64,000 nt of DNA, taken from Minisyncoccia bacterium. GTDB lineage: Bacteria > Patescibacteriota > Minisyncoccia > SW-4-49-11. Positions within the stretch are counted from its first letter, which is position 1. Each line of letters begins with the position of its first letter. The notes below the pieces were generated by a model. That model searched no databases. It saw only the letters and a program-made list of their open reading frames with translations, and was not told the origin of the DNA. Positions 6,012 to 48,203 of this stretch are shown here, in pieces. Location of the stretch: NCBI GenBank assembly GCA_044356325.1, contig JBIKWJ010000003.1, positions 36,749 to 100,748 on the forward strand, in the 5' to 3' direction. The translations under genes were made by a program, and so were the position numbers.

Positions 6012-6025
6012 CATTAAACTTTTTA

Positions 6026-7624: not shown

Positions 7625-7756
7625 ATGTGTAGTTTATGAATAATAAGAGTGTACATATATTTAATATATTAGGTTTATTTATATCTGTCAATATTTGACA
7701 GGACCGCACCCCCTAACCCCTCAACCCAACAACTTTCCAGAGTAGCATTAAATATT

Positions 7757-8887: not shown

Positions 8888-9096
8888 TGATATATAAATA
8901 GTAGTATTAACCCTATATATACCAAAGGATTTCTTATAACACTCATAAACCCTCTCCCCACAGAATTACCCATATCTATAATTGGATTACCTGTTTCCCT
9001 CAAAAATGGAAATGCCAGCCACATAATAAATAAGATAATTATGATGAATACTAAGTATCCTAATGACTGTAAAACTTTATTCTTTTTATCTTCCAT
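8866..9096 (-). CDS. Small membrane protein
   Basis: 76 aa with two TM helices, directly downstream of secreted protein copy B. Confidence 0.4.
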   Translation of the reverse strand: MEDKKNKVLQSLGYLVFIIIILFIMWLAFPFLRETGNPIIDMGNSVGRGFMSVIRNPLVYIGLILLFIYQWGKKKD

Positions 9097-20867: not shown

Positions 20868-20972
20868 TTGTCCCCCTTCGGAGGGGGCCGCCTGAAAGGC
20901 GGGGGTGGATAAAATATAAACTTGAAGTCTATCCTCCTCCGCCCTGCGGGCACCTCCCCCAAGGGAGGACAA
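20868..20972. repeat. GC-rich mosaic hairpin repeat block R1
   Basis: CCCCCTTCGGAGGGGG, GCCGCCTGAAAGGCGG and CCTCCCCCAAGGGAGGAC modules shared with other blocks. Confidence 0.7.
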
Positions 20973-21066: not shown

Positions 21067-23445
21067 CTATTTCTTCCCCCAAGACCAAATTTTTTGAATC
21101 CCTAGCCATACAAAACCTAATATTGCGAGGATAATGAGTCCATAGGATATAATCTCAGCAATTACTACATTCCGAGATTTATGATAGCCAAATTCACATT
21201 CTGAATTAGCGGGTAATATTGCCGATTGAGTGAGCCCATTACGCTCAGGTTTGGTATCAATAGTTTTCTCTCCACAAGTCCATTTGAATTGAGGATTATA
21301 AACCTCTGCCACATTCACATTTTGATCCTTATCACCTGTTCTGACAATAGGATTATAGGAAAATGTTGCCACTACCTCATCTCCCGAGACATATTCTTGT
21401 ACCTCAGGCACTTCATAAATACGATATCCCTCTATAGTAGATTTCACCCATTTTAATTCTGATTTCCTCTCTAGAAGATAACAAGCGACCAGATTTCGCT
21501 TTTCCTTGAATCTATCATCACAATAATTATCGTAGTTCGTTGTCACAATATATTTAACATTATTCTCTCGTAGTATAGGAACCCATTCTGGCACAGAATA
21601 TTGAGGTAATATTTTTTCAAAATTATTAAATACTCTCTGATTAATAGCCATAGCTCGCGTATGATTCCAAGCTCCATCATCATCCCGAGTCAAATCGAGA
21701 ATACGATATTCCTGACTAGGATTAAGATTATCGACTAATTTTTTAGCTCTCTCAAAGCCAGGATAATGAGCCTCCATAGAAGGTACCGTATAGAATGTAT
21801 ACATTTTTAGCCCCTGATACCGAGCTGAAACTAATATCATTATCAGGAATACAGGAATAGAAAATACCCCCACCATACGCCATTGCTTTGACTTCATCTC
21901 GCTCACCACATAATACCAAGTAAGCCCACCCAAGATAGCAATACCAAGAGCAAATATCATCATAAATCTACCCGGAGTACGTAGCCCCCAAAAATAAGGG
22001 AAATACTCATTCAATACCCGATATAACCAAGACTTGCTATACCCCAGAGCCAAGTATCCCGCAATACCAGAACCAATCCAAAGAGGAAGTATATATTTGT
22101 TTCGCCTAAACCACAGAATAGATATAATACCAAAACTTGTCCAAATCAACCAAATAATACGATTATCTAGAGGAATATCCTTGAGCGAATATCCAATTTC
22201 CCCCGATACAATACCCTCTTTATTTTGAAGATATACCAGTTCTGTAATAGTAGGAGAATAATAATCTTTTACAAAAGGAACAATACGCTCCTTAGTCTGA
22301 GATTCATCCAATAAACCTGTATTGGCTCGATACCCAAAGAATGTCGGCACCAAAACATGTAGCCCCAATAAACACACAATAATCCATACCCCAGAGAATA
22401 ATCCCAAACGCCGCATTAATTCTCTCTGAGACTTATAATCAATCAAAGCAATACCCAACATAATAATTATCAGAGGAATAACATTGCTAAATACCATAGT
22501 AATCCCTGAAATCAATGTACTCAAAGCCACAATAATACCCAATACCAAAGTCCGATGTATAAGCCCAAACCAATTTGGCTTATGTCTCATCAACCATATC
22601 CAATCATTTACAATCCAAGGAAGCAAAGCATAAGCAATACCGAATTCCACCACACCATTTAATACCGAGAGATAAAATGGATTCAATATATATATAAGCG
22701 TAGCGAGAATTTGAACCCCAATACCACGACTACTTTTTGTCACCTGAGGGAGAATAGCTCTCATCAACTTTATAATACCCACAGCCGCAATACCAATACT
22801 CAAAAGCTGATGAATTTTTATCCCGAGATAAAAGTCCCCCGCCAAGAATGAAAGAATATGAGTGTATAATACCGCCCAATTACTCGTCAATATATTCCAA
22901 GCAAATCCAAATTGATAAAACCATCCAATCCAAAATGTCAAAAAAGCATCAAGATGAACAACTCCTCCCCCCATATCCAAAAAACTATTATGAGGAATAC
23001 CATCTTTAAAGAAATACTTCCCTGACACATAAATAAGAGATATACCCAATATCCCAATAATCCATATATAAATAGGGATTTTGGTGATTTGTTTGTGCCC
23101 CCAATTACCCGCTTTTTCTAAAGAACTCTCTAATCCTTTCCATCGCCATCGCTGCCCACTCCATATTTCACTAAACACCATAATACACATAAGATAAAAA
23201 ACATTCACCGCAAAAGCTTCAGCCAATTTATCTAATTTGAGAGACAAGGCAATAGGAGCGAGTACAAGAAAGGTAATCGCCCCATACCCTGCATATTTAC
23301 CATCTAATCGAAATAATATTACCACTCCAATATATGCCCAGATTAAAGATGACCATATACTTCCCAAAAGCAAAAAAGCAATCACAAAAATTGCAATAAC
23401 AATTGCTAATTTCACCCAATCTAGACCAGTAATTTCTGATTTCAT
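21067..23445 (-). CDS. Large polytopic membrane protein with a C-terminal soluble domain (GT-C-like glycosyltransferase candidate)
   Basis: 792 aa with at least 14 TM helices over about 520 aa, then a roughly 270-aa hydrophilic domain. Confidence 0.55.
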   Translation of the reverse strand: MKSEITGLDWVKLAIVIAIFVIAFLLLGSIWSSLIWAYIGVVILFRLDGKYAGYGAITFLVLAPIALSLKLDKLAEAFAVNVFYLMCIMVFSEIWSGQRWRWKGLESSLEKAGNWGHKQITKIPIYIWIIGILGISLIYVSGKYFFKDGIPHNSFLDMGGGVVHLDAFLTFWIGWFYQFGFAWNILTSNWAVLYTHILSFLAGDFYLGIKIHQLLSIGIAAVGIIKLMRAILPQVTKSSRGIGVQILATLIYILNPFYLSVLNGVVEFGIAYALLPWIVNDWIWLMRHKPNWFGLIHRTLVLGIIVALSTLISGITMVFSNVIPLIIIMLGIALIDYKSQRELMRRLGLFSGVWIIVCLLGLHVLVPTFFGYRANTGLLDESQTKERIVPFVKDYYSPTITELVYLQNKEGIVSGEIGYSLKDIPLDNRIIWLIWTSFGIISILWFRRNKYILPLWIGSGIAGYLALGYSKSWLYRVLNEYFPYFWGLRTPGRFMMIFALGIAILGGLTWYYVVSEMKSKQWRMVGVFSIPVFLIMILVSARYQGLKMYTFYTVPSMEAHYPGFERAKKLVDNLNPSQEYRILDLTRDDDGAWNHTRAMAINQRVFNNFEKILPQYSVPEWVPILRENNVKYIVTTNYDNYCDDRFKEKRNLVACYLLERKSELKWVKSTIEGYRIYEVPEVQEYVSGDEVVATFSYNPIVRTGDKDQNVNVAEVYNPQFKWTCGEKTIDTKPERNGLTQSAILPANSECEFGYHKSRNVVIAEIISYGLIILAILGFVWLGIQKIWSWGKK

Positions 23446-24424
23446 ATATATCTAATTGTATCATTTTTAGGACAATTAGCAACTTACCTACTTATACTAT
23501 AACCATCACTAAATAAAAAAGATGTGGCACAGATAAGGACTAACCCTTCACCACACGATATACATATAATTTATCCCTATACAAGCTTAAACCCACCTAC
23601 AAAGTTGAGGTGGGTAAATTATTGCTTTTTCCTTGTAGGAATATATCTAGCCTGACTATAATATATAGATTGCCAATCATCTTCTAATTGAAGCAGCCTG
23701 CATATTTGTTGTTTATATAAATATAAAGTGAGTGCTTTGTTGTGACAATGAGATTGTTTCAGCTTTTTCATATTAGCCTGTACTCTTTTAATCTCGTTTC
23801 TAATTTCTTGTATCCTCATCAGAAAACCTCCAAAAAAACACCCATCTACAATACCCAAAATGTTGATTTTTGTCAAATAAAAAGCTGTACAAAAAGCCAA
23901 AAATATGTTATTAATATGTTGGTTTTCATTATCAACCCATGACCAAAAACCATCGTTCAAAGTATCCGAGAATAATACTTATTTGTACAATTACAGCAAC
24001 CTTGTGCTTCGCAGTAGCTGCAAATGGGGCCATAAATCCCAAACAAATGCTAATATTGGCGAGTAATAATCTACATAGTTTTATCGATGACAAAACATAC
24101 CCAGATCCAAAAGATCCAAATGCTCAATGCTCAGCTATGACGCAAAGGCCTTGGAATCAAAGGTGGGGACCTTGCTGGAACTAGCGTCACATCACAACAA
24201 TACTCCATCGCAGGCAAACTGCGGTGGTTTTTTCATATATATTATTGACAAAAAATTTCTTAATGACCCAGATTTAAATAATCTCTTTGAACGGATTAAA
24301 TTACAGATACGTATAGATCAAGAAAGAGCAAAGGCAGAACAAGAATCTTTACCTAAGCAACAGGAGTAGAAAACATCAACCCCAAATCTGGCACATCTTG
24401 TGACCAGATTTTTTATTTACAGAT

Positions 24425-24722
24425 TCTGTCCACACCCACCGCAAAGCAGTCCCCCCTTCCACCTACGGTCGACAAGCTGCCGGCGAGGCCTGCCTGCGGT
24501 AGGCAGGGAGAGTTTTGAGGGCTTTCACTTCTAGCCCCCTTCGTAGGGGGGGCTTTCAGTCACCTGTATTTTGTACTAAATTCCCCTCTCTCCCTACGGG
24601 AGATAAATTGAGGGAGGTGGCCAGGCTTTGCCTGACGGGGTGGAGTAGTTTGCACTTTGCTCTTGCCCTTCTGTCCTCCCTTGGGGGAGGTGGCACGGAG
24701 TACTGGGTGTGGACTGTATTTT
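24425..24722. repeat. GC-rich mosaic hairpin repeat block R2
   Basis: Contains modules A, B, C, D and F shared with R3-R13. Confidence 0.75.
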
Positions 24723-24745
24723 TGTTTCTTATCTCCGAACCTAAT

Positions 24746-25816
24746 TCACCCAATACTTTGAAAATAATTATTCACAGCAAATTCATATTGCTCCATGAAT
24801 ATCTTTTTAAAATAAGTAATATTATTAGTCTCATAAAATAATATACTAGCCTTTTTATACTCAGCCTCAGAAACCCCTCTATAAGACAACGGGGTATAAT
24901 CACAAGCAATCAACATAGCATTAGATACAAGTCTAGCAGTCCTTTTATTCCCATCCTCAAAACCCTGTATATATGACAATAAAATCAAGCTAAAAAATGC
25001 CTTCTCAAACACATTAGAAGTCCCATTCACCAATTTCACCATAGACTTTATAGCCTCCTCAATATGAAACATATTATCTATTGGCCTATAATTAGTTCCC
25101 ACAATCCCCACTGGAGACTTTCTCAAATTATGAGTAATATTCAAATTTTTAACCAAAATCTGATGAGCTTTTTCAATAAAAGCCTGCTTCAAAACTTTAA
25201 AACTCTTTTTATGAGCTATCACAAAATCAAAAGCCTCCTTATGATTAAGGATCATTTGAGTCTCCTCCTGACTTTTACCAACCGCACTTTGATGATTTAC
25301 AATCAAAGACTCCGTATCCAAAAGAGAATAAGTGTTTCCCTCAATCTGAGAAGATTTCCACGCAAACTCAATAATTATCCTTTCAAACTCCTTATGCTTA
25401 ATCACATCACTATCTATACCCTCAAGATTACTAACAAAAGTATTATGCAAACCCTCCAAATAACTCATTTCCTCCTCCGTAAAAACTGAAGTCTCCGCCA
25501 AAAGTTTAAAAACATCAAAATTAAATTTACTATTAACTAACCTCTCATCCTGAGGAATAACAAAATACTCCTCTACATCTATAGGCCTCAAAAGAGCATA
25601 GCCGGGAGCCAAATTATACTCCACACCTCGCCCAGCACCAGTCTGCATCAAATATCCAAGCTCACATAATAATTGCAAATCCCTGACAATAGTCACGCGA
25701 GACACCTCCTCAGCCAAAAATTCCATTATATCCAAAACCGCCCCACTACTATGAGACTCAAAAAACTCTATAATTCTAAGTTGGCGAACATTAAGACCAA
25801 TATTATTCTGCTTCAT
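24746..25816 (-). CDS. Fic-family protein with N-terminal wHTH and a degenerate active-site motif
   Basis: Fic-fold region with QGFEDGNKRTAR in place of canonical HPFx(D/E)GNGRxxR. N-terminal HTH-like segment. Confidence 0.55.
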   Translation of the reverse strand: MKQNNIGLNVRQLRIIEFFESHSSGAVLDIMEFLAEEVSRVTIVRDLQLLCELGYLMQTGAGRGVEYNLAPGYALLRPIDVEEYFVIPQDERLVNSKFNFDVFKLLAETSVFTEEEMSYLEGLHNTFVSNLEGIDSDVIKHKEFERIIIEFAWKSSQIEGNTYSLLDTESLIVNHQSAVGKSQEETQMILNHKEAFDFVIAHKKSFKVLKQAFIEKAHQILVKNLNITHNLRKSPVGIVGTNYRPIDNMFHIEEAIKSMVKLVNGTSNVFEKAFFSLILLSYIQGFEDGNKRTARLVSNAMLIACDYTPLSYRGVSEAEYKKASILFYETNNITYFKKIFMEQYEFAVNNYFQSIG

Positions 25817-25896
25817 ATAAAATATATTAAATCATTAATTCAATCTAATTGTATCATAAATGATACAATTAAGCAATCGCAATGATACAATTAAAT

Positions 25897-26160
25897 CCAG
25901 CACTCCCTCCACTTCGTAGAGGCGACCTTTCAGTCACCTGTATTTTGTACTAAACTCCCCTCTCTCCCTACGGGTTTACCTCCCGTAGGGGTGGAGATAA
26001 ATTAAGGGAGGTGGCAGGGCGGTCCCTCCCATACTTTAAGTTTGGGAGGGGACGGAGGAGGACTTTTCAGACGGCGGAATGAGGACAAAAACCCCCTACT
26101 CCCCCACAGAATCACTATCTATCTTAGAGCGACTCCCCTGTTTTCGCTGACGATAAAAAG
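25897..26160. repeat. GC-rich mosaic hairpin repeat block R3
   Basis: Modules F and E. The 70-bp module E is identical to 28258-28335. Confidence 0.75.
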
Positions 26161-26236
26161 TATAGCCAAGGTAGCTAATATATATATAATTACAATTTCC
26201 TATGATATAATATAAAGACCATATTTACAAAATACT

Positions 26237-26674
26237 ATGAACAAAAATATTAAAAAATTTATAAAAAGATTTCAGGAATGGTTCATAATAAAACCAAACC
26301 TAGACATCTCAGAACACAAACCTCCCTTCTTTTCTGAAAGAGATATTTGGTGGTGTCGTTTAGGGGAGAATATAGGGATTGAAATAAGTGGCAAAGGTCG
26401 AGAGTTTGCTAGACCAGTAATAGTATTGAAGAAATTTTCACAAAGATTACTTTTAATAATACCAACTACAACAAAACTTACATTTTCTAATGGAACAGAA
26501 AAAGAGGGAGAAAGATTTATAAAATTTATTTATAATGACATTGTAATGTTAGCTTGCTTAGAACAAGTTAGAACTATAGACTATAGAAGATTAAAAAACA
26601 AATTAGGTCAATTAGATAAAAAAGATTTCAACTTGATACACACATCTTTTCAAAACTTATTTATAAAAAAATAA
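26237..26674 (+). CDS. PemK/MazF-like toxin fold protein
   Basis: RDIWWCRLGENIGIEISGKGREFARPVIVLKK...LLIIPTTTK matches the MazF/PemK core (W..dl.p..G.E..g.RP.lVl...vv.Pit). Confidence 0.5.
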   Translation: MNKNIKKFIKRFQEWFIIKPNLDISEHKPPFFSERDIWWCRLGENIGIEISGKGREFARPVIVLKKFSQRLLLIIPTTTKLTFSNGTEKEGERFIKFIYNDIVMLACLEQVRTIDYRRLKNKLGQLDKKDFNLIHTSFQNLFIKK

Positions 26675-26837
26675 GCCCTCTTGCGAGGGGCGCGGCTAGT
26701 GCCGAATACAATAGTAATATATACCAAAACTTTACATTTGTCAAGTCAAAATTTTCTGTCCCCTACTTCTTTATTTTCACAGTATTATGCTCTTTTGACT
26801 TAGAATGTTTTTTCTTCTGTCCTTCGTTGGTGAGTAT

Positions 26838-27012
26838 GGACTGAGATTTTTGTTCTCCATTCCCCTCTTGAGGGGTGGACAGCTTCGCTGGACGGGGTGG
26901 AGTATTTTGTCCTCCCTCACTAGCACTCTGTCCCTCGCTGGCAGCTTGTCGACCGTAGGTGGAAGGGTGGCACGGAGTGCCGGGTGTGGACTGAGCTTTA
27001 TTCCCCCTCTTC
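26838..27012. repeat. GC-rich mosaic hairpin repeat block R4
   Basis: Modules C, B and A in order. Confidence 0.75.
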
Positions 27013-27030
27013 CTAACCCAATAAAACCCA

Positions 27031-27094
27031 AGATACCCTAGACATAGAATCAAGGTAGTGCCCGAGATAATAATACCAAGATAAAAAATATGAT
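27031..27094 (+). repeat. 64-bp direct repeat, copy 1 (duplicate of the 3' end of the 28272..30518 gene)
   Basis: About 60/64 identical to 28345..28407. Encodes an ...ILCLGYLG... TM segment on the minus strand. Confidence 0.7.
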
Positions 27095-27126
27095 ATAATT
27101 AGTACTATATTCCAAAAATAAATATT

Positions 27127-27768
27127 ATGACTTATATTTTTTTAGATGAGAGTGGAGATTTAGGTTTTAACCTAAATAAAAGTGGGACAAGTGAAAACTT
27201 CATTATTACATTCTTTGTAATAAAAAATAAAAAGCCCTTTGATAATATTGTAAAGAAAACTCTTGCCAAAATGAATAAAGTAGAAAGAAAGTCTATACAA
27301 GGTGTTTTGCATTCTTATAAACTATTACCTAGAAGGAGAAAGAAGTTATTAAAATCTATATTAGAATATGATTTCAAGTTGATGGTAATAAGGTTAAATA
27401 AATCCAAAGTATACACACATTTACATAATGAAAAGCAGGTAGTTTACAATTATATAACCAATATATTACTAAATAGAATATTAGATAAAAAACTAATAGA
27501 CACTGATCAAAAAGTTCATCTTATAGCATCAAGAAGAGAAACAAATAAATTTCTAAATTCAAATTTTAAAAATTACTTAAAGAATAAAGCTCAAAAAAAC
27601 CATTCTATTGATATAGATATAAATATTGCATTATCCAATCAGGAAAAGTGTTTACAGATAGTAGATCTGATAAGCTGGTCATATTTCAGACACATAGAAC
27701 ACAAAGATAGTAGCTACTACAATATAATCAAAGAGATGATGGAAGAAGAAGTAATTTTGTTCCAATAA
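27127..27768 (+). CDS. DUF3800-family protein
   Basis: N-terminal IFLDESGDLGF is the DUF3800 hallmark. 213 aa. Confidence 0.55.
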   Translation: MTYIFLDESGDLGFNLNKSGTSENFIITFFVIKNKKPFDNIVKKTLAKMNKVERKSIQGVLHSYKLLPRRRKKLLKSILEYDFKLMVIRLNKSKVYTHLHNEKQVVYNYITNILLNRILDKKLIDTDQKVHLIASRRETNKFLNSNFKNYLKNKAQKNHSIDIDINIALSNQEKCLQIVDLISWSYFRHIEHKDSSYYNIIKEMMEEEVILFQ

Positions 27769-27924
27769 AACAAAACCCTAAGTGCCATTTAGAGGAACCA
27801 TACGGAGCCTCACACTTAGGGAATTACTTGTTGATTAGATTATAACAAATATACTCAAGTTTTGTCAAGACAAAAGCTCTCCCCTACTTCTTAATCTTAA
27901 TTACACTCTTAGACTTATTTTTCT

Positions 27925-28336
27925 TCTGTCCTTTATGTCTGTCCCTGCCTACCGTAGGTATGGCCTCCCTACTCACCTGTCCTCCCTTTTTTAATCCACC
28001 TTGGGTGGAGGGGGTGCCTGCAAGGCAGGGGTGGATGTATTTTGCAATTTGAGCTTTTGTCTCCCTTAGGAGGCTTTCGTCCCTCCTATATTTATTTAGG
28101 AGGGGGAGTACCCGCAGGGGGAGGGTGGATCAAACTCAAAATAAAATACTAAAATAATAACTGAGTTATAAAATTACAATTATCCACCTCCGGCACTCCG
28201 TGCCACCTCCTCCAACTACCTACGGATTTACCTCCCGTAGGGATGGAGTTAAAAAGGAGGACAAAAACCCCCTACTCCCCCACAGAATCACTATCTATCT
28301 TAGAGCGACTCCCCTGTTTTCGCTGACGATAAAAGG
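27925..28336. repeat. GC-rich mosaic hairpin repeat block R5
   Basis: Modules B, D, H and A, ending in the 70-bp module E. Confidence 0.75.
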
Positions 28337-30518
28337 AATACCCTAGATACCCTAGACAAAGAATCAAAGTAGTGCCCGAGATAATAATACCAAGGTAAAA
28401 ATATGATTGAGGTTTGAAGTATAAAGTTAGCTCTAGATCTATACTTCCATCTAGATTCTCCTTGTACATAGACTTATCAAAATTAGCTTTGATATACTCA
28501 GGGTCAATAGTCCATTGATTAGCATAGTCATATACAAGTTTATGGGTGTCTTCAAAGAGGGGTTTTTGGAATAAAATATTTATATCACGCTGGGTAGCAT
28601 ATTTAAATTGTGTATCATTGTAATGTTGAATATTAGGGTTTTGATTATCTAGATAAAGTTTATACTGCTTATTAAATCCTTCTAAAAAGTTTAATTGTGT
28701 ATTATCCTTTATCCCCTTCAAACTAATATTATATTGAGTGATATTGGTTTTAGTAAATGAATATTCTTGATTATCTGGCAGAACTATTTTAGGAGTAAAA
28801 ATTTCATCTGGAACTTTATATAAACTTAAATATTGATTGTCTATAATTTTGGTAACATTCGTAGAGTTTACAATTTCAATCATTTTATTTATATCTTTTT
28901 CTTTATCAAAAATATCTTTACGTATTAAAATATATTTAATATTAGTATTTTGTAATACATTAATATCTTTAGTTTCAACAAATTGTTTTAACAAATCATC
29001 TTGTAAAGAATCATAGTATACAGGATTTTCTCTTATTAGAGTAGCAATAATATCTCTTCCTATATATAATTTTTTATTGGTATCATAAACTCTAAAACCT
29101 CCAGATTCTGGTAAACTTAAAACTTTGTAAAAGTCTTTATCCTCATTTAAATAAGTCACTGTATCTGTATATTCCTGAGGGACATCAAATACATATGATC
29201 CACTATTTGGATAATTATCTTTAGATAATACGACTTCTTTTGTCAAGAATGGATATGAAAATAGTATAACTAAAAAAATAATATATAGACCAAATACATA
29301 TCTAATAGTCTTCTTATTATAGGAAGAGAATATGTATAGAAAAATAATAATAACTGTAATAGGAATTAATACCGAGAATTTATTATCAGGAGAGCGGACA
29401 GCACCAAACAATGATATATTATCAAGTAAAAAAGAATATATCCCTCCAAAGGGGGGTAATGGCCCTTTTGCAAAAAATATACTTATTAACAATATAGTTA
29501 TATACGGTAGTATTTTATGTCTAATAGCCTTTGCTAGAAGGGCAATGGTCATTACAATATATATTGATAATGAACTTAGGATAAACAGAGGCCCATTAAT
29601 ATATGTTGAGAACGTATAAAGACTCTTAGAGGTCCAAGAAGTATATATTGGCCAATGATAGTGTCCCTTCAAAATTGTTAATATGCCACCTTGAACCAAA
29701 TTATTTGTAGAATTAATTAAATTATTGGCAACAAAACTTTGATCTTTAGCCTGTACTAAAAAGGGTATAATAGTTGGCAGTCCTATAATAATTAAAAATG
29801 GAACTATTATTATAGTCCTATTAATAAAACATTTCCACCTAATTTGTGAGAAATGGAATCCTATCAAGATTATAGATAAGAAAATAATAGGAATTACATA
29901 CGTAATATGAAATAAGATAATACTACTTAATAGTATCAGCCATATAAGCCCTATATTACTTATATTTGATTTAATAAGTTTTAAAAGATAATATACAAAA
30001 AGTGGTATAGCACCATAGGAGATATATGATATTGAGAAAAAAATACCATTATTTATATTGCTAATATTAAATGGGTTAACAAAATAAAATAAAGTAGTTA
30101 AAATTATAATAAAGTAATCCTCTCTCTTTAAAAGTTGTTTATTTACGATATACTCATAATATATAAAATATATACCTAAAAATGATAGTATTAAGATAGA
30201 TGTTTGTATAAAAAAATATAGAATAATTGTTGTTTGCCCAAAAGATATTCCTGTTATCGTATGTATTATCATTTGAAATAAATCTGTAACTAAAAATTGA
30301 TATGGATTTACAGCCTGAAACATATCAAATCCATTATAAAAGGGTGGCTTTATAATCAATGAATTATTAAAAAAACTATATGCTGAATTTACCGATAAGG
30401 TATCATGAACTACTAATAAATTGTTTTGTTTAAAATTTAAAAATAGATATCCCGTTATCAATAAACTGAAAAACACAAGCCCTACACAAATGATTATTAT
30501 ATTTTTACTTTTTACCAT
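28272..30518 (-). CDS. Large polytopic membrane protein with a C-terminal periplasmic domain (GT-C-like). Last codons lie in repeat R5.
   Basis: 748 aa with about 13 TM helices, then a roughly 330-aa hydrophilic domain and a final TM. Overlaps the upstream methyltransferase by 14 nt. Confidence 0.55.
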   Translation of the reverse strand: MVKSKNIIIICVGLVFFSLLITGYLFLNFKQNNLLVVHDTLSVNSAYSFFNNSLIIKPPFYNGFDMFQAVNPYQFLVTDLFQMIIHTITGISFGQTTIILYFFIQTSILILSFLGIYFIYYEYIVNKQLLKREDYFIIILTTLFYFVNPFNISNINNGIFFSISYISYGAIPLFVYYLLKLIKSNISNIGLIWLILLSSIILFHITYVIPIIFLSIILIGFHFSQIRWKCFINRTIIIVPFLIIIGLPTIIPFLVQAKDQSFVANNLINSTNNLVQGGILTILKGHYHWPIYTSWTSKSLYTFSTYINGPLFILSSLSIYIVMTIALLAKAIRHKILPYITILLISIFFAKGPLPPFGGIYSFLLDNISLFGAVRSPDNKFSVLIPITVIIIFLYIFSSYNKKTIRYVFGLYIIFLVILFSYPFLTKEVVLSKDNYPNSGSYVFDVPQEYTDTVTYLNEDKDFYKVLSLPESGGFRVYDTNKKLYIGRDIIATLIRENPVYYDSLQDDLLKQFVETKDINVLQNTNIKYILIRKDIFDKEKDINKMIEIVNSTNVTKIIDNQYLSLYKVPDEIFTPKIVLPDNQEYSFTKTNITQYNISLKGIKDNTQLNFLEGFNKQYKLYLDNQNPNIQHYNDTQFKYATQRDINILFQKPLFEDTHKLVYDYANQWTIDPEYIKANFDKSMYKENLDGSIDLELTLYFKPQSYFYLGIIISGTTLILCLGYLGYSFYRQRKQGSRSKIDSDSVGE

Positions 30519-31380
30519 ATACCATATAAACCGCTCCTGTAAAAATATTGTTTTGAAGTATATAATATATTTTCCTCAAAAAATCATTTTTCATCTTTTC
30601 CTCAGATGGATAAAATGCAAAAGAAGACACAATTATATTATTAAACTGATTACTTTTATGTAATTTTTTTAATTTATAGGTGGTATAACTTAGTTCATAT
30701 CCATAATAACGTTCTAGAACTTTGCCTTTTAATAGATTTATATGGATATACTCCAATACTTGTCGTATTCCTAGTATATCTGGAATATTATTAAAAAATC
30801 GAAATATCCACCACAAATTAAAAGCAGGGACAGTATTAAATGATACTCCCCCAGGTCTTAATACTCTATAACTCTCCTTTAAGATATTATTGGTATCTTT
30901 AAAATGCTCAATTACCCCTCCCCCATAAATAAAATCTACACTATTGTCTTTTAAGGGCATATTATTGATATCATCATAAATAAGAATATATTTTGTATAT
31001 TTTTTTTCATCAAAATATTTTTTGAGAGTTAAAAGCATTTCATAGTTAAAATCTATTCCAACAAAATAAGCATTATACGTCTCTAGCACATAGTCTGCAA
31101 TATGAGCAGGCCCACAACCAATTTCTAAATATATTGAATCTTGATTTATAGTATAAGCTTTTTCAATATATCTAATAGCATCTTTTAATTTACTCTCATT
31201 AAAATCTTCCCGATCTTTTTTTAATTTTTCCAAACTAAAATCATAAATTTTAGTCCAAGCTTTTTTTGAAATAGCGATGTCTTGACCGTCGCTAAATTCT
31301 TTTAGTGACTTATTTACATAAATTCCATTATTATCAACAGATAATTTCCCTTCTTTTATAATTTCATTTAAATTTAGCAT
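30505..31380 (-). CDS. Class I SAM-dependent methyltransferase
   Basis: Motif I LEIGCGPAH. Confidence 0.65.
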   Translation of the reverse strand: MLNLNEIIKEGKLSVDNNGIYVNKSLKEFSDGQDIAISKKAWTKIYDFSLEKLKKDREDFNESKLKDAIRYIEKAYTINQDSIYLEIGCGPAHIADYVLETYNAYFVGIDFNYEMLLTLKKYFDEKKYTKYILIYDDINNMPLKDNSVDFIYGGGVIEHFKDTNNILKESYRVLRPGGVSFNTVPAFNLWWIFRFFNNIPDILGIRQVLEYIHINLLKGKVLERYYGYELSYTTYKLKKLHKSNQFNNIIVSSFAFYPSEEKMKNDFLRKIYYILQNNIFTGAVYMVYGKK

Positions 31381-31382
31381 AG

Positions 31383-32525
31383 TTATAATTCTAAATTCTT
31401 AAAAATATCAGCATAATTAAATTTTCTAGCATATTGTTTTGCATTCTGACGATACTGTATATTATTACTTTTTTTCAATAGAAAATCAATAGCATGTATT
31501 ATACTTTCTTTTGTCTCATCAATAATAATTCCACATTTACTCTCTTCAATATCTTTGGCATTCCAAGGAATATCTGTAAGTAGTACAGGTACCCCACAAG
31601 CAATATATGTTTTGATTTTTCCAGGATCGGCATAGTATGTCCAAGTATCTAATTTTTTAATATATGGTGCTACTGCAATTGTGGACTTTGCGACTTCATT
31701 TTCTAATTCTTTAATATCTTCTATTTTACCTAAGAAAATACAATGTTTTCTTATATGTAATGTGTCCACTAATACTTCAAGTTCATCTCTATAAGAACCT
31801 CCTCCAATAATTTTAAATATTATTTTAGGATATTTTTTAATAATATCTGGGAGATATTTTAGAATTAACTGCACACCTTGTTTGGGTAATAAATGCCCCA
31901 TAAAAACAATAGTATAAGGGTCAATCTCATCATATGAATATGTTTTTACTTTATCTACCCACATACCATAAGGTACCACTTTATGAGATTTGTAATTTTC
32001 TTTTTTTATATCTAAGAATTTCTCTCTTGCCTCCAACATACGGGGACTCAAATCCCACATTTCATCAGATTCTTTATATCCAGATATATTAATCCAGTGA
32101 TAAATTTTATTCTTCCATCCACCCTGAAATCTATTTTCAGGGACAAAATCCATAGTCCAAAAAACTACTTTTTTTACCTTACCAAAAAATTTTAATAATC
32201 GACCAAATAAGACACATAGACCATCCATCCCTATATAGGTATCAAATATAATCTTAGTTTTATAGGTATACCTAAATGTTGCCCATAATTCTTTGAGATA
32301 TAATATTGGTTCAGGTAAATATGAATAGTCTTTACCTCTATATTCCTCAACTAATTTCCCCTTTTTATATAATCTATAATAACTACATCTATCTGGAGCA
32401 TCAGAAAAGCTGTGAAGAATGTGTAATACCGTTGAATATTTTTGATCATTCAAATATACAACCAATTCATCATCTGGCTGAGTAAGAAATTTATGCGCAA
32501 CAATTACAATATTATTATTTGACAT
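31383..32525 (-). CDS. GT4 (GT-B fold) glycosyltransferase
   Basis: C-terminal GT-B domain (...ESKCGIIID...). Confidence 0.6.
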   Translation of the reverse strand: MSNNNIVIVAHKFLTQPDDELVVYLNDQKYSTVLHILHSFSDAPDRCSYYRLYKKGKLVEEYRGKDYSYLPEPILYLKELWATFRYTYKTKIIFDTYIGMDGLCVLFGRLLKFFGKVKKVVFWTMDFVPENRFQGGWKNKIYHWINISGYKESDEMWDLSPRMLEAREKFLDIKKENYKSHKVVPYGMWVDKVKTYSYDEIDPYTIVFMGHLLPKQGVQLILKYLPDIIKKYPKIIFKIIGGGSYRDELEVLVDTLHIRKHCIFLGKIEDIKELENEVAKSTIAVAPYIKKLDTWTYYADPGKIKTYIACGVPVLLTDIPWNAKDIEESKCGIIIDETKESIIHAIDFLLKKSNNIQYRQNAKQYARKFNYADIFKNLEL

Positions 32526-33416: not shown

Positions 33417-33742
33417 TCCCCTGAGGGAGGGGGTGAGAGCAGTCCACACCCGGCACTTTGTGACACCCTTCCACCTACGGTCGACAAGCTGCCAGCGAGG
33501 CCTGCCTGCGGTAGGCAGAGACAAAAAATACCATCCACCCCGTCAGACATAGCCTGCCACCCCTCAAGAGGGGAATTTTTAGGGCAAGTTGCAAATTACA
33601 TCCACCCTCCCCCGTCGCAAATGGGATTTGCTCCTGTCCTCCTCCGTCACCTACGGTGACACCTCCCCCAAGGGAGGACAAGAGTGCAAGTTGCAAAATT
33701 AAATACAGGCGACTGAAAGGTCGCCCCTACGAGAAAGTAGGA
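33417..33742. repeat. GC-rich mosaic hairpin repeat block R6
   Basis: Modules A, B, C, D and F. Confidence 0.75.
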
Positions 33743-33760: not shown

Positions 33761-34777
33761 TTAAAAATTTATATTGGATAATCTTTTTATAATAGCTTCT
33801 TCGCTAGGTAGATATTTTGCATATTCTTTGGGGAGATTTTCGTATTTGTTATAGGTGGCTACTCCGATTGGATCTTTGGCTTGTTCTAGCATATATTCTA
33901 CTTCTGTTCTGTTTTTGTCTTTGCAGATTACGATGCCGATGGTGCGATTGTGTTGTTCTTGTTTGACTTGTTTGTTGATTAGTTGCATATACATTTGGAC
34001 TTGCCCCATATCTTTGGGTTGAAATTCTCTTGCCTTGAGTTCGAAGACTATATAGCAGTTGAGTTTGAAATTAAAAAACAAAAGATCTATAAAATACTCT
34101 TTTTCTTCTATGGTTAGTCTGTATTGTCTACCTACAAATGCGAAGCTCCCTCCCATATCTGCTAGAAAATTGACGACATTGGTGACTATGGTGTTTTCTA
34201 TTTCCTTCTCGCTAAATGGTTGGTCGGGGCTGATTAGCTCTATATTATAATCATCTACAAACTCCCAAGCGACTTGGGCTTTGAGTGTGTCTAGGATGGT
34301 GGTGTTGAAATTGTTCTGAGCTAGGGCTTGATTTTCGAAATGGTGAGATTTTATTTTATCTATTAGGTCTAGTTTTGACCAGCCCATTTGTTTGGTCTTT
34401 TTGAGGTAGTATTCTTTTTGAATATCGTCTTTACATTTTTCAAAAATAAGTTTGTTTTGTATCCAGCCAATTTCTCGCACCAGTGGAGCGAGTTTTTTAT
34501 TATCTTTGTATGTTTCATAAAAAGTTTTCATTCTCCATAGATTGGATGCTGAAAAACCTTTAATTCCTGGGAATTCTCTTTGTAAATCTTTGGATAATTG
34601 TTCTACTATGGATTTCCCCCATCCTTGATCTTGCATTTGCTGGCTGACTGATTTTCCTATTTCCCAATATAATTCTACTGTCTGTTTGCTGACTGTTTTG
34701 AGCATTTCATATCTGGCTGATTGGATTTTGGTTAGAATTTGCTCTAAAAATGGTTGGTATTGGGTGATTTGTGTCAT
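33761..34777 (-). CDS. YhcG-family (DUF1016) PD-(D/E)XK nuclease
   Basis: N-terminal ELYWEIGKSV and C-terminal IDLLFFNFKLNCYIVFELKAREFQPKDMGQVQMYM (PDDEXK core) are typical of DUF1016/YhcG. Confidence 0.7.
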   Translation of the reverse strand: MTQITQYQPFLEQILTKIQSARYEMLKTVSKQTVELYWEIGKSVSQQMQDQGWGKSIVEQLSKDLQREFPGIKGFSASNLWRMKTFYETYKDNKKLAPLVREIGWIQNKLIFEKCKDDIQKEYYLKKTKQMGWSKLDLIDKIKSHHFENQALAQNNFNTTILDTLKAQVAWEFVDDYNIELISPDQPFSEKEIENTIVTNVVNFLADMGGSFAFVGRQYRLTIEEKEYFIDLLFFNFKLNCYIVFELKAREFQPKDMGQVQMYMQLINKQVKQEQHNRTIGIVICKDKNRTEVEYMLEQAKDPIGVATYNKYENLPKEYAKYLPSEEAIIKRLSNINF

Positions 34778-34840: not shown

Positions 34841-35030
34841 CATCCACCCTCCCCCTTCGGGTACTCCCTCCTAAGGGAGACAAAAGCTCAAGTAACAAAA
34901 TCCACCCCGTCCAGCGAAGCTGTCCACCCCTCAAGAGGGGAATTTAGTACAAAATACAGTCCTCCTCCGTCACCTACGGTGACACCTCCCCCAAGGGAGG
35001 ACAGAAGGGAAGAAGCTCAGTCCACCCTAT
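34841..35030. repeat. GC-rich mosaic hairpin repeat block R7
   Basis: Modules C and D. Confidence 0.75.
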
Positions 35031-35090
35031 TCTATATTTTTTATAAAAGATATGTTATAATAAATATAGGATAAAAAATAATAAACATAT

Positions 35091-37555: not shown

Positions 37556-37656
37556 GGAGGACAGTGTATTATGTTCCTGCCTACCGCAGGCAGGCCTCAC
37601 TGGTAGCTTGTCGACCATAGGTGGAAGGGGGACCACGTCAGTGGTGGGTGTGGACA
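37556..37656. repeat. GC-rich mosaic hairpin repeat block R8
   Basis: Module B in reverse orientation, then module A. Confidence 0.7.
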
Positions 37657-37684: not shown

Positions 37685-38059
37685 TTACAACAAAATCTTA
37701 CTCTTAATAAAATCCTCCAGTATAGGGGTTATACTATTTATAGATTTGAGTACTTCTTCATCAGTAAATCGTAACACAGTAAAACCTAAATTTTCTAAAT
37801 ACCTTTGCCTTATTAGGTCATTTTCATAAATTTCAGGGTGATTATGGCTTTCTCCATCTACTTCAATGATGAGTTTTAATTCTAGACAAATAAAATCTAC
37901 AACATATTTACCTATTGGTCTCTGTCTTCTAAATATAACTCCTAGTTTTTTACCTTTTAATATATATTTCCAGAGACTAGCCTCTGCTTTTGTCATTGAT
38001 TTACGAAGTTTGTGAGCAATGGGTTGTAATTGAGAATTATAATTATTATTTTGTTTCAT
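37685..38059 (-). CDS. DUF559 (Vsr-like endonuclease fold) protein
   Basis: YVVDFICLELKLIIEVDGESH...RQRYLENLGFTVLRF matches the DUF559 core. Confidence 0.65.
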   Translation of the reverse strand: MKQNNNYNSQLQPIAHKLRKSMTKAEASLWKYILKGKKLGVIFRRQRPIGKYVVDFICLELKLIIEVDGESHNHPEIYENDLIRQRYLENLGFTVLRFTDEEVLKSINSITPILEDFIKSKILL

Positions 38060-38095: not shown

Positions 38096-38320
38096 CTGTC
38101 CACACCCACCACTAACGTGGTTCCCCCTCGCCAGCGAGGGACAAAAAGCTTTGTCCTCCCTTGGGGGAGGTGCCTGCAAGGCGGAGGAGGATATACCTTA
38201 CCAGCTACCTCCTCCGTCGCAAACAGGATTTGCTCCTGTGAAACCTCACGGTTTCCCAAACCTTCCTACACGGGAAAACTCCCGTTTTCCCGACCCCTTT
38301 CCCGGAGGCAGAAGCTTACC
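38096..38320. repeat. GC-rich mosaic hairpin repeat block R9
   Basis: Modules A, D and G, plus the gcttaccagctaccgcctccg module that extends into the 3' end of the DUF2207 gene. Confidence 0.7.
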
Positions 38321-39944
38321 AGCTACCGCCTCCGCCTCCACCAGAGCCACCACCAGCAGAACCTCCACCAGATGAGGCTGATGACATAGTGGAAGATAAT
38401 GAGCTATCTATACTACTGACAAAATCAGTTGGAATAAATACTACTCCATTATTAGAATGATACCAATCTGGATTGGTTGTAATAAGTCCTTCAAAGGCTT
38501 TTGCCCATACTGTTGCCAGCCCAAGAGCAATGGCAAAAGGTAATATTTCAAAAAATATATATTCTTTTTCTTGGAATTGTAATCTATCTTTTTCTGCTAC
38601 TCTAATATATTCTTCTAGTCCTAGAATATGTTCTAATACTCTTGTCCCCTCTTCTGTTCTCTTTGGGGCATAAAATGCTGAGATAGCGGCCAATATTGCT
38701 AGAATATTTAATGATATTGCAATCCATCCTGAAATAAACACCCCAATAATAAAAGCTAATATGAATAGGCCTACTACTATGACACCTAATATACTTCTTG
38801 GTATATTGGGATTTATTGCAAAATATTGTTTCACCTCATCTCTATATATGCTCTTATATATTATATTAAATTTATCCCCTATATGCTCATCTGTTAAATC
38901 TTTCGTAGTGACAGTTTTTCTCTTACCTTTAAATAATATACCTAATAATTCCTGCTCAAATGGCTTTAATGTTTTACCCTTTGGTATATCTTTGAGGTCA
39001 AATTGAAATATCCCATTACTAAACCATTTCTTCTCTTCTATTTGGGTTATATTGAGTATGCCTTGTTGCGCAAGGGATATAATAGTAGCAGATATCTCTA
39101 CTGGGGTTGAATAAGTGTTCTTGAACCGTATAATTGCAGCTGGGCTCATACCCTTTGGTGCATCATATTGTCTTACTATAGGTGTGCGGATTTTGGGGTC
39201 TCTTGCCCAAGCATTCCAGACAAAATATAATATTAAACTTCCTATGATGAGAATTACCCCCGCAATACTCTTATATATAAGCTCTTGATTCTCTTCCCAC
39301 CAAGTTGGAGGGGTAAGTGTACCAAGTGGAAATCCTATTGCAAAAGTTAACCCTTCTCCCGCTGCAAGTGATTGATTAGATGTTATCTCAATAGTACGAG
39401 CATTTGTCCAAGTAATAGTACAGTCTTGCGCTTTTGATGAAGACATACCGGTATAACAATATAATTTGTCCCCGACTTTGTCTTGTAAATCTTCTGGTAA
39501 TAGAATTGTTGCGGAAGCTTGCTCTATGGGGACTTCCCAGTCAGTTCCTGTTATTTGCCAATATAATTCATCTCTATCTTGGAGTTTTTCGATCACGCCC
39601 TTTACTTGATAGGTAATACTATATTGATTGAGGCCTGTAAGGTATATATCTGCATCTCCTATTTTGATATTAATTTCTCCACCCCGACTAATTTCCTGAG
39701 TTGCCGCCCTCCCATTTTGTAATGCCTGTATATCCCCTTGTATATTAATTCCTTTGAGGGGAATTGTCCGATAAATTCCACGCCTTTCATTTTCTCCAAA
39801 ATCATAGGATATATTCTCCTCTACTTGTATACTCCTATCAGTATTGACTGTAATAGTACTCTTAAAATCTCGTATAGTCTCGGCTGATACCAATACTGGG
39901 AAAATATATAAAACTATTGCGATCAGAGCATATTGAGCTTTCAT
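38316..39944 (-). CDS. DUF2207-like membrane protein with a C-terminal Gly-rich tail
   Basis: Signal peptide, a roughly 200-aa extracytoplasmic domain, TM helices and a C-terminal SGGGSAGGGSGGGGGGSW tail. Confidence 0.5.
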   Translation of the reverse strand: MKAQYALIAIVLYIFPVLVSAETIRDFKSTITVNTDRSIQVEENISYDFGENERRGIYRTIPLKGINIQGDIQALQNGRAATQEISRGGEINIKIGDADIYLTGLNQYSITYQVKGVIEKLQDRDELYWQITGTDWEVPIEQASATILLPEDLQDKVGDKLYCYTGMSSSKAQDCTITWTNARTIEITSNQSLAAGEGLTFAIGFPLGTLTPPTWWEENQELIYKSIAGVILIIGSLILYFVWNAWARDPKIRTPIVRQYDAPKGMSPAAIIRFKNTYSTPVEISATIISLAQQGILNITQIEEKKWFSNGIFQFDLKDIPKGKTLKPFEQELLGILFKGKRKTVTTKDLTDEHIGDKFNIIYKSIYRDEVKQYFAINPNIPRSILGVIVVGLFILAFIIGVFISGWIAISLNILAILAAISAFYAPKRTEEGTRVLEHILGLEEYIRVAEKDRLQFQEKEYIFFEILPFAIALGLATVWAKAFEGLITTNPDWYHSNNGVVFIPTDFVSSIDSSLSSTMSSASSGGGSAGGGSGGGGGGSW

Positions 39945-47366: not shown

Positions 47367-48203
47367 ATGGTTTCTTTCAAATTACACAATGGTTTTGATC
47401 GGCTTAAGATGTATAATGGATTGATGGGGGCTCTCCACTTCTTCCAAGCTGGATTAATGTTATATATTTCTAAAGAATATTTACTACCTGTATTTACCCA
47501 TTATCTCAAATTTGATGCTGCAAATCGTAGCGCTATACCTATGCCAGTAGAAGAAAAGTTATTTGATGTAAATGTTGGACCAGCTGTTGCTTTATTCTTA
47601 TTATTATCAGCATTAGCCCATTTTATTACAATTTTACCTAATGTGTATCCTTGGTATATCAAAAATCTCAAGAAGCATATTAATGTGATCAGATGGTATG
47701 AATATGCTCTATCATCATCAATAATGATTGTAATAATAGGATTGTTGGTTGGTATTTATGACTTCTCTACTCTCTTATTACTCTTTGGACTTAATGCCGC
47801 TATGAATCTTTTTGGTCTTGTGATGGAGCAAATCAATCAAGATAGAAAAGATGTTAATTGGCTTCCATATATATTTGGATGTATTGCAGGTATAATCCCT
47901 TGGATTGTTATTTTCCTTCATTTCCAAGGAGCTCTTGCTAATGTCGATGTAGATGTGCCAAGTTTTGTATATTGGATTGTATTCTCATTATTTGCAGTAT
48001 TCAATGTATTTGCTATTAATATGTTCCTTCAATACAAAAAAGTTGGGCCTTGGAAATCATATGTGTTCGGAGAGAAAATCTATGTTTTCCTATCCCTATT
48101 TGCTAAAACATTATTAGCTTGGCAGGTATGGTCAGGAACTCTTAGAGGTCGTGAGAATGACGTATCATCTGCTATTAATCATATTATTAACTTAATTTCA
48201 TAA
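47367..48203 (+). CDS. Heliorhodopsin (seven-TM retinal protein, inverted topology)
   Basis: Diagnostic motifs IRWYEYALSSSIMIV, FGCIAGIIPWIV, VPSFVYWIVFSLF and FLSLFAKTLLAWQVWSGTL (Schiff-base Lys). These closely parallel heliorhodopsin 48C12 as recalled from memory. 278 aa. Confidence 0.8.
   Translation: MVSFKLHNGFDRLKMYNGLMGALHFFQAGLMLYISKEYLLPVFTHYLKFDAANRSAIPMPVEEKLFDVNVGPAVALFLLLSALAHFITILPNVYPWYIKNLKKHINVIRWYEYALSSSIMIVIIGLLVGIYDFSTLLLLFGLNAAMNLFGLVMEQINQDRKDVNWLPYIFGCIAGIIPWIVIFLHFQGALANVDVDVPSFVYWIVFSLFAVFNVFAINMFLQYKKVGPWKSYVFGEKIYVFLSLFAKTLLAWQVWSGTLRGRENDVSSAINHIINLIS

Follow-up and report, generated by a model that had tools for sequence, protein, structure and literature searches.

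How does the end of a membrane-protein gene come to stand twice in a genome, with an unrelated gene between the two copies? The question is raised by a ~1.3-kb segment within a 64,000-nt stretch of DNA from a Minisyncoccia bacterium (contig JBIKWJ010000003.1, positions 36,749 to 100,748), which we analysed at its full length and call the window. In this segment, a gene for a DUF3800 protein lies between two direct copies of the 3' end of a large membrane-protein gene, referred to here as the anchor gene. A first-pass annotation of the window had described a one-off insertion or gene capture at the 3' end of a glycosylation gene, with target duplication. Comparison with related loci upholds the insertion, its site and the duplication, but neither the single event nor the target duplication. 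The duplication is best read as one of the junctions in a cassette array that recurs in Paceibacteria of the candidate phyla radiation (CPR) and varies from strain to strain, and the best explanation of the 1.3-kb segment is that it is the newest cassette of a small array at the 3' end of a conserved GT-C gene. We put at roughly 55% the probability that such cassettes are gained, lost and shuffled by recombinase-free homologous (Campbell-type) recombination at the gene-end copies.

A repeat search of the window returned a 65-nt direct repeat of 92% identity (27023-27087 and 28337-28401), which BLAST extended to 27023-27094 and 28337-28407 (91.7% over 72 columns, one 1-nt indel, E = 2e-22). Its 26-nt exact core, GTAGTGCCCGAGATAATAATACCAAG, stands at 27055-27080 and 28369-28394, nowhere else in the window, and had 0 matches in 100 dinucleotide shuffles of the sequence. 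The 64-bp direct repeats reported at 27031-27094 and 28345-28407 are thus real. Copy 2 (28337-28407, minus strand) is the functional 3' end of the anchor gene and codes for the last transmembrane helix, LGIIISGTTLILCLGYLGY, of its 748-aa open reading frame (ORF) at 28272-30518 on the minus strand (..YFYLGIIISGTTLILCLGYLGYSFYRQRK..). Copy 1 (27023-27094, minus strand) is a remnant of an anchor-gene 3' end. The helix recurs there intact as LGIIISGTTLILCLGYLGF and reads on into the GC-rich block R4, making up the mechanical ORF 26763-27053, while the frame is broken upstream by an extra A in the A-run 27083-27088. Translation of the two ORFs agrees with the first-pass annotation on both helices, the one in the membrane protein and the one in the junk ORF. 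Between the copies lie the DUF3800 gene, also as annotated (27127-27768; Pfam E = 8.6e-10), and the GC-rich block R5. The 748-aa product is present on contigs of two samples, and over window 23400-31400 one of these contigs, L001, shows 100% identity. Parts of the region also stand on shorter contigs of additional samples, at 100% (L006, L016, L018) or 99.985% identity (L015). Two contigs from other samples end within copy 1, L015 at window 27074 and L018 at window 27080, and co-existing strains may have differing junctions there.

The anchor gene stands at the end of a GT2-GT1-methyltransferase glycan cluster, as seen in a Pfam search of the neighbouring ORFs. Its polytopic product has no Pfam match above threshold (GT-C_AftD reaches E = 0.09 and 11 bits against a cut-off of 26), no NCBIfam match and no PDB match by sequence. 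In a Foldseek search of the PDB with its AlphaFold2 (AF2) model (pLDDT 74.8), the top 13 matches are all GT-C enzymes (AftD E = 3e-8, TMq 0.48; STT3, AftA, DPY19, AglB), and residue D39 is invariant across a 14-sequence alignment. The earlier label of a GT-C-like glycosylation gene therefore holds at fold level: the model predicts a GT-C membrane glycosyltransferase with a C-terminal transmembrane helix.

Related loci were gathered by exact-protein look-ups and pattern scans, giving a dozen distinct locus versions. Scans of metagenomes and genomes with the 26-nt core pattern found three loci only; an exact match under-samples diverged copies, and the census comes mainly from the exact-protein look-ups. 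The reference-genome pattern matches are titled Candidatus Paceibacterota and Parcubacteria group, and the source organism is a CPR bacterium (Paceibacteria) of a freshwater clade. Among these loci is the empty site that the first-pass annotation had proposed to look for. L008, whose anchor ortholog is 90% identical in amino acids, has a single gene-end copy followed by the Fic gene and lacks window 26065-28336 (DUF3800 and PemK with their flanking sequence). In L010, Fic is missing as well as PemK and DUF3800, and neither L011 nor the outgroup L019 has the DUF3800 segment. In L019, the two large membrane genes that flank the island in the window overlap, with no intervening sequence. A 14-nt identity, AAATATGATTGAGG, between the antisense of the window gene end and the sense strand at the L019 gene junction is probably due to chance.

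Other relatives carry more copies than the window does around DUF3800. L012 has five gene-end copies, four of which bound NYN (minus strand), DUF3800, NYN and KilA-N cassettes, the KilA-N gene matching PADLOC PDC-S22 with E = 1e-133. L013 has three copies, one of them a ~188-nt remnant, and L020 has three copies and PemK-like genes. The order PemK134-DUF3800-PemK145 in L004 is the reverse of that in the window, the order of PemK145 relative to DUF3800 differs in both L004 and L005, and L002 and L003 have two different DUF3800 genes. The cargo bounded by gene-end copies in relatives comprises DUF3800, MazF/PemK-like, NYN, KilA-N/PDC-S22 and Fic genes, in either orientation relative to the remnant. 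The two-copy architecture is also found in diverged genomes, including two metagenome-assembled genomes (MAGs) in GenBank, and none of the loci examined has a tandem gene-end duplicate free of cargo. With up to five gene-end copies and varied cargo in L012, L013, L020 and L004, the site has been used repeatedly, and the idea of a one-off event is not borne out.

The tails of the anchor gene distinguish its alleles. At least four tail types follow the invariant helix in live genes and remnants; those of live genes are E (..YRQRKQGSRSKIDSDSVGE*), YWV, KRGGKG* and a long ..KIKK*. The live gene of the window bears the E tail, and copy 1 keeps the YWV tail of the intact gene of L008, the relative with the empty site. 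The 96-nt sequence known as module E (28254-28349, minus strand) is the E-type tail of the anchor gene: its coding part, 28272-28336 (..SFYRQRKQGSRSKIDSDSVGE*), amounts to ~21 codons, not the 13 that had been counted left of the repeat, and a short 3' flank follows. It matches 26078-26173 at 94%. Module E is always joined to a gene-end copy in all loci examined, and the E-type tail terminates the orthologous proteins P0002, P0004 and P0006 and also genes in L009 and L020. Therefore, it is the gene's own tail and not a dispersed-repeat module, and the final codons are not supplied by repeat block R5, as had been suggested, but belong to the native tail of one allele class. Block R5 (27880-28253) consists of GC-rich hairpin modules that are repeated across the window, with a GC content of 0.42-0.48 versus ~0.25 in genes; its left end, 27884-27933, is the end of the long anchor tail version (..KSKSVIKIKK*, minus strand). 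Block R4 (26763-27022) comprises a YWV-type tail, GC-rich hairpin modules and a ..KIKK* end. The GC-rich blocks might serve as coding tails: three long tails end in one and the same ..KIKK* frame, but three copies give no significance, and unrelated spacers contain these modules in either direction.

The gene end is conserved where its surroundings are not. In its last 150 nt, the anchor gene of the window shares 87-95% identity with the seven ingroup comparators and 73% with the outgroup L019, and this conservation holds where the remaining gene aligns at only ~50-60% in nucleotides (L012: 34% in amino acids overall). Against L002 (window 28337-31400 versus L002 11018-13946), the last ~750 nt are 95-99% identical and the remainder ~60%, while the methyltransferase is 81% and the 792-aa gene across the island 94% identical. 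We therefore regard the glycan cluster as a hypervariable, allele-replaced region like O-antigen loci, with the conserved gene end as the seam between two variable regions. A derivation of copy 1 from the neighbouring 792-aa membrane gene was rejected, this gene and the anchor gene not being close paralogs (E = 0.003 for the best local BLASTP match).

An alignment of 16 gene-end copies reveals how the remnants are bounded. The gene-end homology always spans the tail through the helix and stops at a cargo-dependent point. The remnants are 19 nt long beside PemK145, ~29 nt beside NYN167, ~31 nt beside PemK132 and ~188 nt in L013_b, with others of 64-72 and ~82 nt, and only the tail-proximal 19 nt are common to all. 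The right-hand breakpoints are cargo-specific and constant for a given cargo across genomes: the DUF3800 remnants end in ..ATATGA in four genomes, and those of NYN171 and KilA-N in ..GGTTT. The single DUF3800 breakpoint occurs next to four remnant alleles and tails that differ from one another. Nearly all variation in the remnants is synonymous, and of the 18 remnant variants in the 57-nt helix, 15 are also found in live alleles and three are private. Since the remnants share their variants with live alleles and preserve the helix peptide, they are recently frozen functional gene ends and not old pseudogenes.

These boundaries do not suit target duplication of the transposon type. The duplicated length is 64-72 nt for DUF3800 but ranges elsewhere from 19 to ~188 nt with the cargo, no terminal inverted repeats were seen and the sole inverted repeats are the generic GC-rich hairpin modules. 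A transposon or insertion sequence with a target-site duplication was dropped from consideration. Among the Pfam-searched ORFs of the 64-kb window and the genes called in related loci, no integrase, transposase or other recombinase was found, and the same ORFs of the window include no Phage_integrase domain (intI) near the array. The boundary repeat contains no inverted-repeat pair in the repeat search, and its conserved core has no dyad symmetry by eye. An attC-like structure was rejected by folding, which gave a minimum free energy (MFE) of ~-1.2 kcal/mol (z ~-0.5) on either strand.

A cycle of homologous recombination at the gene ends would account for these features as follows. An incoming DNA circle would carry the cargo and a copy of the anchor gene 3' end, and a RecA-type single crossover would occur between the circle and the resident gene end. 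The anchor gene would be rebuilt with the donor tail, E-type here, and the resident end, YWV-type here, would be moved beyond the cargo and remain there in truncated form, with a start point set by the length of the gene carried on the circle. The direct repeats could later permit excision, loss, re-insertion and reordering, again by homologous recombination, and strains could likewise exchange DNA by using the conserved gene end as a homology arm. The cassettes might be kept in place by addiction or defence functions of the toxin and RNA modules. Campbell integration predicts the asymmetry of tails that we observe, a remnant with an L008-like YWV tail and a live gene with a foreign E tail. 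It also predicts cargo-specific breakpoints that are constant across genomes, with older units distal, and one DUF3800 breakpoint beside four remnant alleles, both of which are seen. In addition, the cargo genes are all nuclease-, toxin- or defence-type singletons, each with a predicted convergent small RNA, which supports the homologous model.

Several points weigh against this proposal. The evidence is a comparison of static assemblies, and neither a circular intermediate nor a recombination event was observed. The homology, 64-72 nt and for the PemK remnant 19 nt, is short for a RecA-dependent crossover. Copies 1 and 2 share the lineage-specific variant CCCTAGACA, and remnants b and c of L012 share a private variant, an ACG codon. 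Because of such shared variants within a genome, a simple single crossover is insufficient, and gene conversion or in situ duplication has to be added. The identity of the DUF3800 cassette between the window and L002 (96%) is no higher than the background set by the 792-aa gene (94%), and is therefore not independent evidence of mobility; an argument from cassette conservation above the flanks (96% versus 78%) was dropped for this reason. A recombinase may act in trans from outside the 64 kb of genome seen here, and L008 may be a deletion derivative and not the pristine state.

The recombinase in trans leads to the alternative of site-specific recombination, in which an enzyme encoded elsewhere (integron-like, of the type used by integrative mobile elements exploiting Xer (IMEX/Xer-like), or a lost island integrase) would use the gene-end copies as att-type sites. 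We consider this unlikely. Direct repeats of a 3' end, with the gene restored by element sequence, are the classic signature of integrase islands, the units have accreted serially with older ones distal, and the DUF3800-proximal 35-40 nt of the remnant are nearly constant while the distal part is genome-variable, which is compatible with a crossover near GTAGTGCCCGAG. However, the ORFs searched in the window and the related-locus genes include no integrase, resolvase or transposase, the junctions share no segment to the right of the first 19 nt, and a repeat that lacks dyad symmetry or a hairpin, beside cargo in either orientation, is hard to reconcile with such sites. Alternatively, the array could have originated in situ, through a tandem 3' duplication by slippage or unequal crossing-over between GC-rich modules, illegitimate insertion of cargo into the distal copy and spread by double-crossover exchange. 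The within-genome shared variants named above, the indel variability of GC-rich modules between strains (window 24437-24668 is missing in L008) and the random breakpoints expected for illegitimate insertion agree with this origin. It leaves unexplained why the live gene has a foreign E tail and the remnant the lineage's own tail, and why the same cargo and breakpoint stand beside four remnant alleles at different array positions. The cargo-free tandem duplicate that it passes through is seen in no locus, and we judge it rather improbable.

Two further readings have little in their favour. The silent gene-end copies might be a reservoir of C-termini (E, YWV, KRGGKG* and long KIKK*) for programmed variation of the glycosyltransferase's cytoplasmic tail, with the cargo as passengers, since at least four tail types after an invariant helix resemble silent-cassette systems. 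We think this very improbable: the tails are short, of low complexity and largely drawn from GC-rich modules that also fill unrelated spacers in both orientations, the remnants break off at arbitrary points and one of them carries a frameshift, and all copies are direct repeats, so that exchange deletes the cargo instead of switching reversibly. Chance similarity or metagenome mis-assembly across the repeat is barely credible. The contigs of L015 and L018 do end inside copy 1, as happens at repeats, but the significance of the alignment (E = 2e-22, 0/100 shuffles), a contig with 100% identity over 8 kb and the recurrence of the architecture in diverged genomes oppose it. The same 748-aa product stands on contigs of two samples, and mis-assembly is therefore not the explanation.

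What the newest cassette carries can be described in some detail. The DUF3800 gene (27127-27768, plus strand) codes for a standalone 213-aa protein with an N-terminal DESG motif and matches Pfam PF12686 over its full length (39.9 bits against a cut-off of 21). The top 14 PDB matches of its AF2 model (pLDDT 85) are all RNase HII/H2 (best E = 6e-6), and in the alignment D7, E8, S9, G10 and D180 are invariant and E138 nearly so; the homolog set numbers 1107 at E <= 1e-10. The modelled fold is RNase HII-like and agrees with published fold assignments, in which DUF3800 has an RNase H fold (PMC10910872). Between strains, the ORF differs by 1-10 nucleotide changes against 0-1 amino-acid changes, and it is therefore a live gene. 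A putative promoter and 5' untranslated region occupy 27091-27126 (plus strand). The extended -10 element of this putative promoter, TGATATAAT (27091-27099), would lie across the right-hand breakpoint of copy 1, and the junction ATATGA/TATAAT is identical in the window, L002, L004 and L012. Neither DUF3800 nor PemK145 has a PADLOC match. A search of IMG/VR with the DUF3800 profile and the core pattern of the RNA described below found nothing, and tblastn with DUF3800 gave no phage record and three weak plasmid matches.

The insert had been described as DUF3800 and a repeat block alone, which is incomplete: it also carries a conserved, covarying small-RNA gene convergent with DUF3800. This candidate small RNA (27763-27832, minus strand) forms a nested hairpin with the inner sequence UGRGGCUCCGUAnGGUUCCUC, followed by a U-run that overlaps the DUF3800 stop codon (MFE -23.8 kcal/mol, z -4). 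Its promoter (27839-27868, minus strand) is a sigma-70-type consensus, TTGACA-18-TATAAT, TG-extended, and faces the DUF3800 3' end. It is the top promoter-like site in 23400-28600, with 12/12 matches, and a TTTGTCAAGACAAA palindrome overlaps its -35. The two best promoter-like sites of that interval are both on the minus strand, directly 3' of DUF3800 and PemK, and both precede a stable hairpin and a U-run finishing at the cargo stop codon.

A homologous RNA adjoins a 43%-identical DUF3800 gene in L002, and the RNA is also found beside 52-58%-identical DUF3800 genes of other Parcubacteria, of an alphaproteobacterial Acanthamoeba endosymbiont and of an Ignavibacteriae MAG. With its own consensus promoter and a U-run, the RNA lies at window 27763-27868 (minus strand), L002 8871-8985 (plus), L021 3120-3188 (minus), L025 3139-3207 (minus), L027 3127-3197 (minus) and L028 3140-3209 (minus). 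The core is almost invariant in six distinct sequences. In the stem alignment, 90.5% of cells are paired versus 35-58% in slid controls, with compensatory changes at 7 pairs. A covariance model finds exactly one RNA copy per DUF3800 gene (8 loci), always convergent over the stop codon, and no further copy in 184 kb. Like the published DUF3800-I to -XI motifs (Weinberg et al. 2017, PMC5737381; Rfam RF02969, RF02968 and others; also PMC11701678), this is a structured RNA beside a DUF3800 gene, on the opposite strand, with an intrinsic-terminator-like U-run. Unlike them, it has no Rfam 15 match in four tests: no Rfam 15 family, DUF3800-I to -XI included, matches window 27740-27900 or L025 3100-3300 at E <= 10, and none of the DUF3800 Rfam families reaches gathering score in L002, L021, L025 or L027. 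It seems to represent another motif, so far undescribed, that belongs with the 213-aa standalone DUF3800 subfamily. The conserved core suggests recognition by protein, as in type III systems, and not pure antisense pairing. In L027 (endosymbiont of Acanthamoeba UWC8, CP004403.1), DUF3800 and the RNA (2501-3197) stand within a cluster resembling phage-tail or gene transfer agent (GTA) genes, flanked by tape-measure/DUF2460/Gp84 genes and GTA_TIM/Phage-tail_3 genes, and the module looks like a moron-type insertion.

The window holds a second, older unit at 26078-26760, made up of an E tail, a 19-nt remnant and a PemK gene. Its gene-end remnant (26078-26178, minus strand) consists of an E-type tail and just 19 nt of the helix region, GTATAGCCAAGGTAGCTAA; longer versions of this remnant allele are found in L004, L012 and L020. 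The cargo is a 145-aa PemK/MazF-like toxin gene (26237-26674, plus strand; Pfam PF02452, E = 2.3e-9) with no adjacent antitoxin ORF. A convergent promoter (26716-26744, 11/12) precedes a two-hairpin RNA with a U-run (26664-26710) that abuts the PemK stop codon, the whole lying at 26664-26744 on the minus strand. The same arrangement recurs at PemK/MazF-like singletons, five different ones in all, which lack an antitoxin ORF and each have a convergent TTGACA-N17-TATAAT-type promoter, a two-hairpin RNA and a U-run at the stop codon (besides the window, L020 2478-2620, L013 1590-1730, L004 75-215 and L008 5436-5580). The sequence of the stems differs between them and the architecture is kept; NYN171 has an analogous convergent promoter-hairpin-U-run unit. 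The PemK 3' hairpins match no Rfam family, the pemK motif RF02913 included. We infer that the cassettes are nuclease or toxin plus small-RNA modules, with a layout like that of type I toxin-antitoxin loci.

A bolder extension of the homologous model would treat the locus as an integron-like but recombinase-free cassette bank. In it, GT-C 3'-end copies would be portable homology arms for capture, excision in circular form and re-insertion by RecA alone, and the modules would form a new class of protein-RNA pairs, with RNase HII-like DUF3800, MazF-like and NYN nucleases under dedicated convergent RNAs; the DUF3800 RNA would be a cross-phylum partner recognised by the protein. We offer this as a tentative possibility, and as a whole it is doubtful.

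The most distal variable cargo of the island is a Fic-domain gene (24746-25816, minus strand; SoFic / PDC-S04-like), which is present in L008 and absent from L010 and L002. It is bracketed by 66-nt direct repeats of 91% identity (24536-24600 and 25909-25974) that are unrelated to the anchor-gene end. Window 23511-23552 has a 43-nt match of 97.7% to the hairpin region 3' of the NYN171 gene in L013 (1100-1142) and is probably what is left of an NYN cassette once present at the island's distal end.

Beyond the island, GC-rich (~50%) blocks of short hairpin modules (for example GGTGGCACGGAGTGCCGGGTGTGGA and CCCTACGGGAGGTAAACCCGTAGGG) fill many spacers in both orientations of a genome of ~28% GC. 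They lie at 20880-20972, 24400-24740, 25900-26077, 26800-27022, 27880-28253, 33440-33732, 34842-35032, 37556-37656, 38097-38344, 51182-51244 and 51955-52260, vary by indels between strains as at 24437-24668, and are candidates for repetitive extragenic palindromic (REP)-like or miniature inverted-repeat transposable element (MITE)-like sequences or for terminators. Identical 45-nt direct repeats within such blocks (33636-33680 and 34959-35003) flank a YhcG/DUF1016 PDDEXK nuclease gene (33761-34777), which may be another cassette-like unit. Also in GC-rich blocks, a 33-nt inverted repeat of 91% identity (37624-37656 and 38097-38129) flanks a gene for a 124-aa DUF559/MTES_1575 endonuclease-like protein (37685-38059); the equivalent place in L008 is occupied by another ORF, of 253 aa. 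Direct repeats of 134-300 nt and 90-93% identity (5979-6278 and 7713-8012; 7180-7524 and 9595-9960) link the Pfam-less ORFs 6707-7624 and 9086-10054 and their flanks, which are recent paralogous duplications. A heliorhodopsin gene is present at 47367-48203 (plus strand; Pfam PF18761, E = 1e-93).

The genomes of CPR bacteria, or Patescibacteria, are tiny and poor in recognisable mobile elements, few defence systems are known from them, and, to our knowledge, little is understood of how they acquire and turn over accessory genes. The present locus illustrates one such route, concrete and repeatable. Next to a hypervariable surface-glycan cluster, single-gene nuclease and toxin cassettes accumulate at a hot spot, split by gene-end copies, with no recombinase found nearby. 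If the homologous-recombination cycle is true, the array is a minimal analogue of integrons, and extra gene-end copies are a simple marker for mining new defence and toxin genes in uncultured bacteria. The DUF3800 domain repeatedly turns up next to CRISPR, retron and further defence systems, and unexplained RNA motifs are known to accompany it; the small RNA beside the 213-aa family is a testable handle on this widespread domain of unknown function.

Among known systems, islands at gene 3' ends (tRNA, tmRNA or protein genes, such as the tycheposon-type islands of marine cyanobacteria) share with the array partial 3'-end direct repeats, a target restored by incoming sequence, tandem units with repeated remnants and strain-level presence or absence. 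Here too, the flanking direct repeats are the 3' part of the target gene, and the gene is restored. The array differs from them in that no integrase was found in the units or nearby, the element itself consisting of DUF3800 and the small RNA only. In addition, its units are 0.9-1.3 kb (one gene and one small RNA), its remnants of 19 to ~188 nt have no fixed identity block or crossover core common to all units beyond the tail-proximal 19 nt, and its cargo lies in either orientation. Sedentary chromosomal integron arrays, which are rich in toxin-antitoxin and anti-phage genes, resemble the locus in their single-gene cassettes, repeated boundary and fixed platform, in an order that varies by strain and in cargo rich in toxin- and defence-type genes. 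Integron cassettes are mostly promoterless single ORFs. The single-ORF cassettes of the present array, in variable order and mixed orientation, have their own predicted promoters, and the array has no intI or attI, its boundary being a copy of coding sequence without an attC-like hairpin.

The orphan toxin/immunity cassettes of rhs and cdiA offer another likeness: their downstream units keep a fragment of the main gene as homology for recombination with the live gene. In the GT-C array, the fragment is the extreme 3' end, a transmembrane helix and tail, and does not stand upstream of a swappable toxin domain, and the cargo genes are independent and unfused to the main ORF. At the level of the single cassette, the closest layouts are type I (Bacillus txpA/RatA; the concept is reviewed in PMC6563280) and type III (ToxIN) toxin-antitoxin systems. 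They likewise combine a toxin-type gene with an opposite-strand 3' small RNA, a strong promoter and a terminator, and have no protein antitoxin gene. In silico, the window's toxin-type genes have such adjacent RNAs, with promoters of 12/12 and 11/12 matches, a hairpin and U-run each and, for the DUF3800 RNA, covariation. Unlike type I toxins, the products are full-size enzymes (RNase HII-like DUF3800, MazF/PemK-like and NYN proteins) and not small membrane peptides, and the core of the DUF3800 RNA is conserved in sequence across phyla. Taken together, these comparisons point to a recombinase-less, gene-end-anchored cassette array in CPR bacteria, which departs from gene-end islands and integrons in their defining features and yet appears to work as an island-accretion site or an integron array does.

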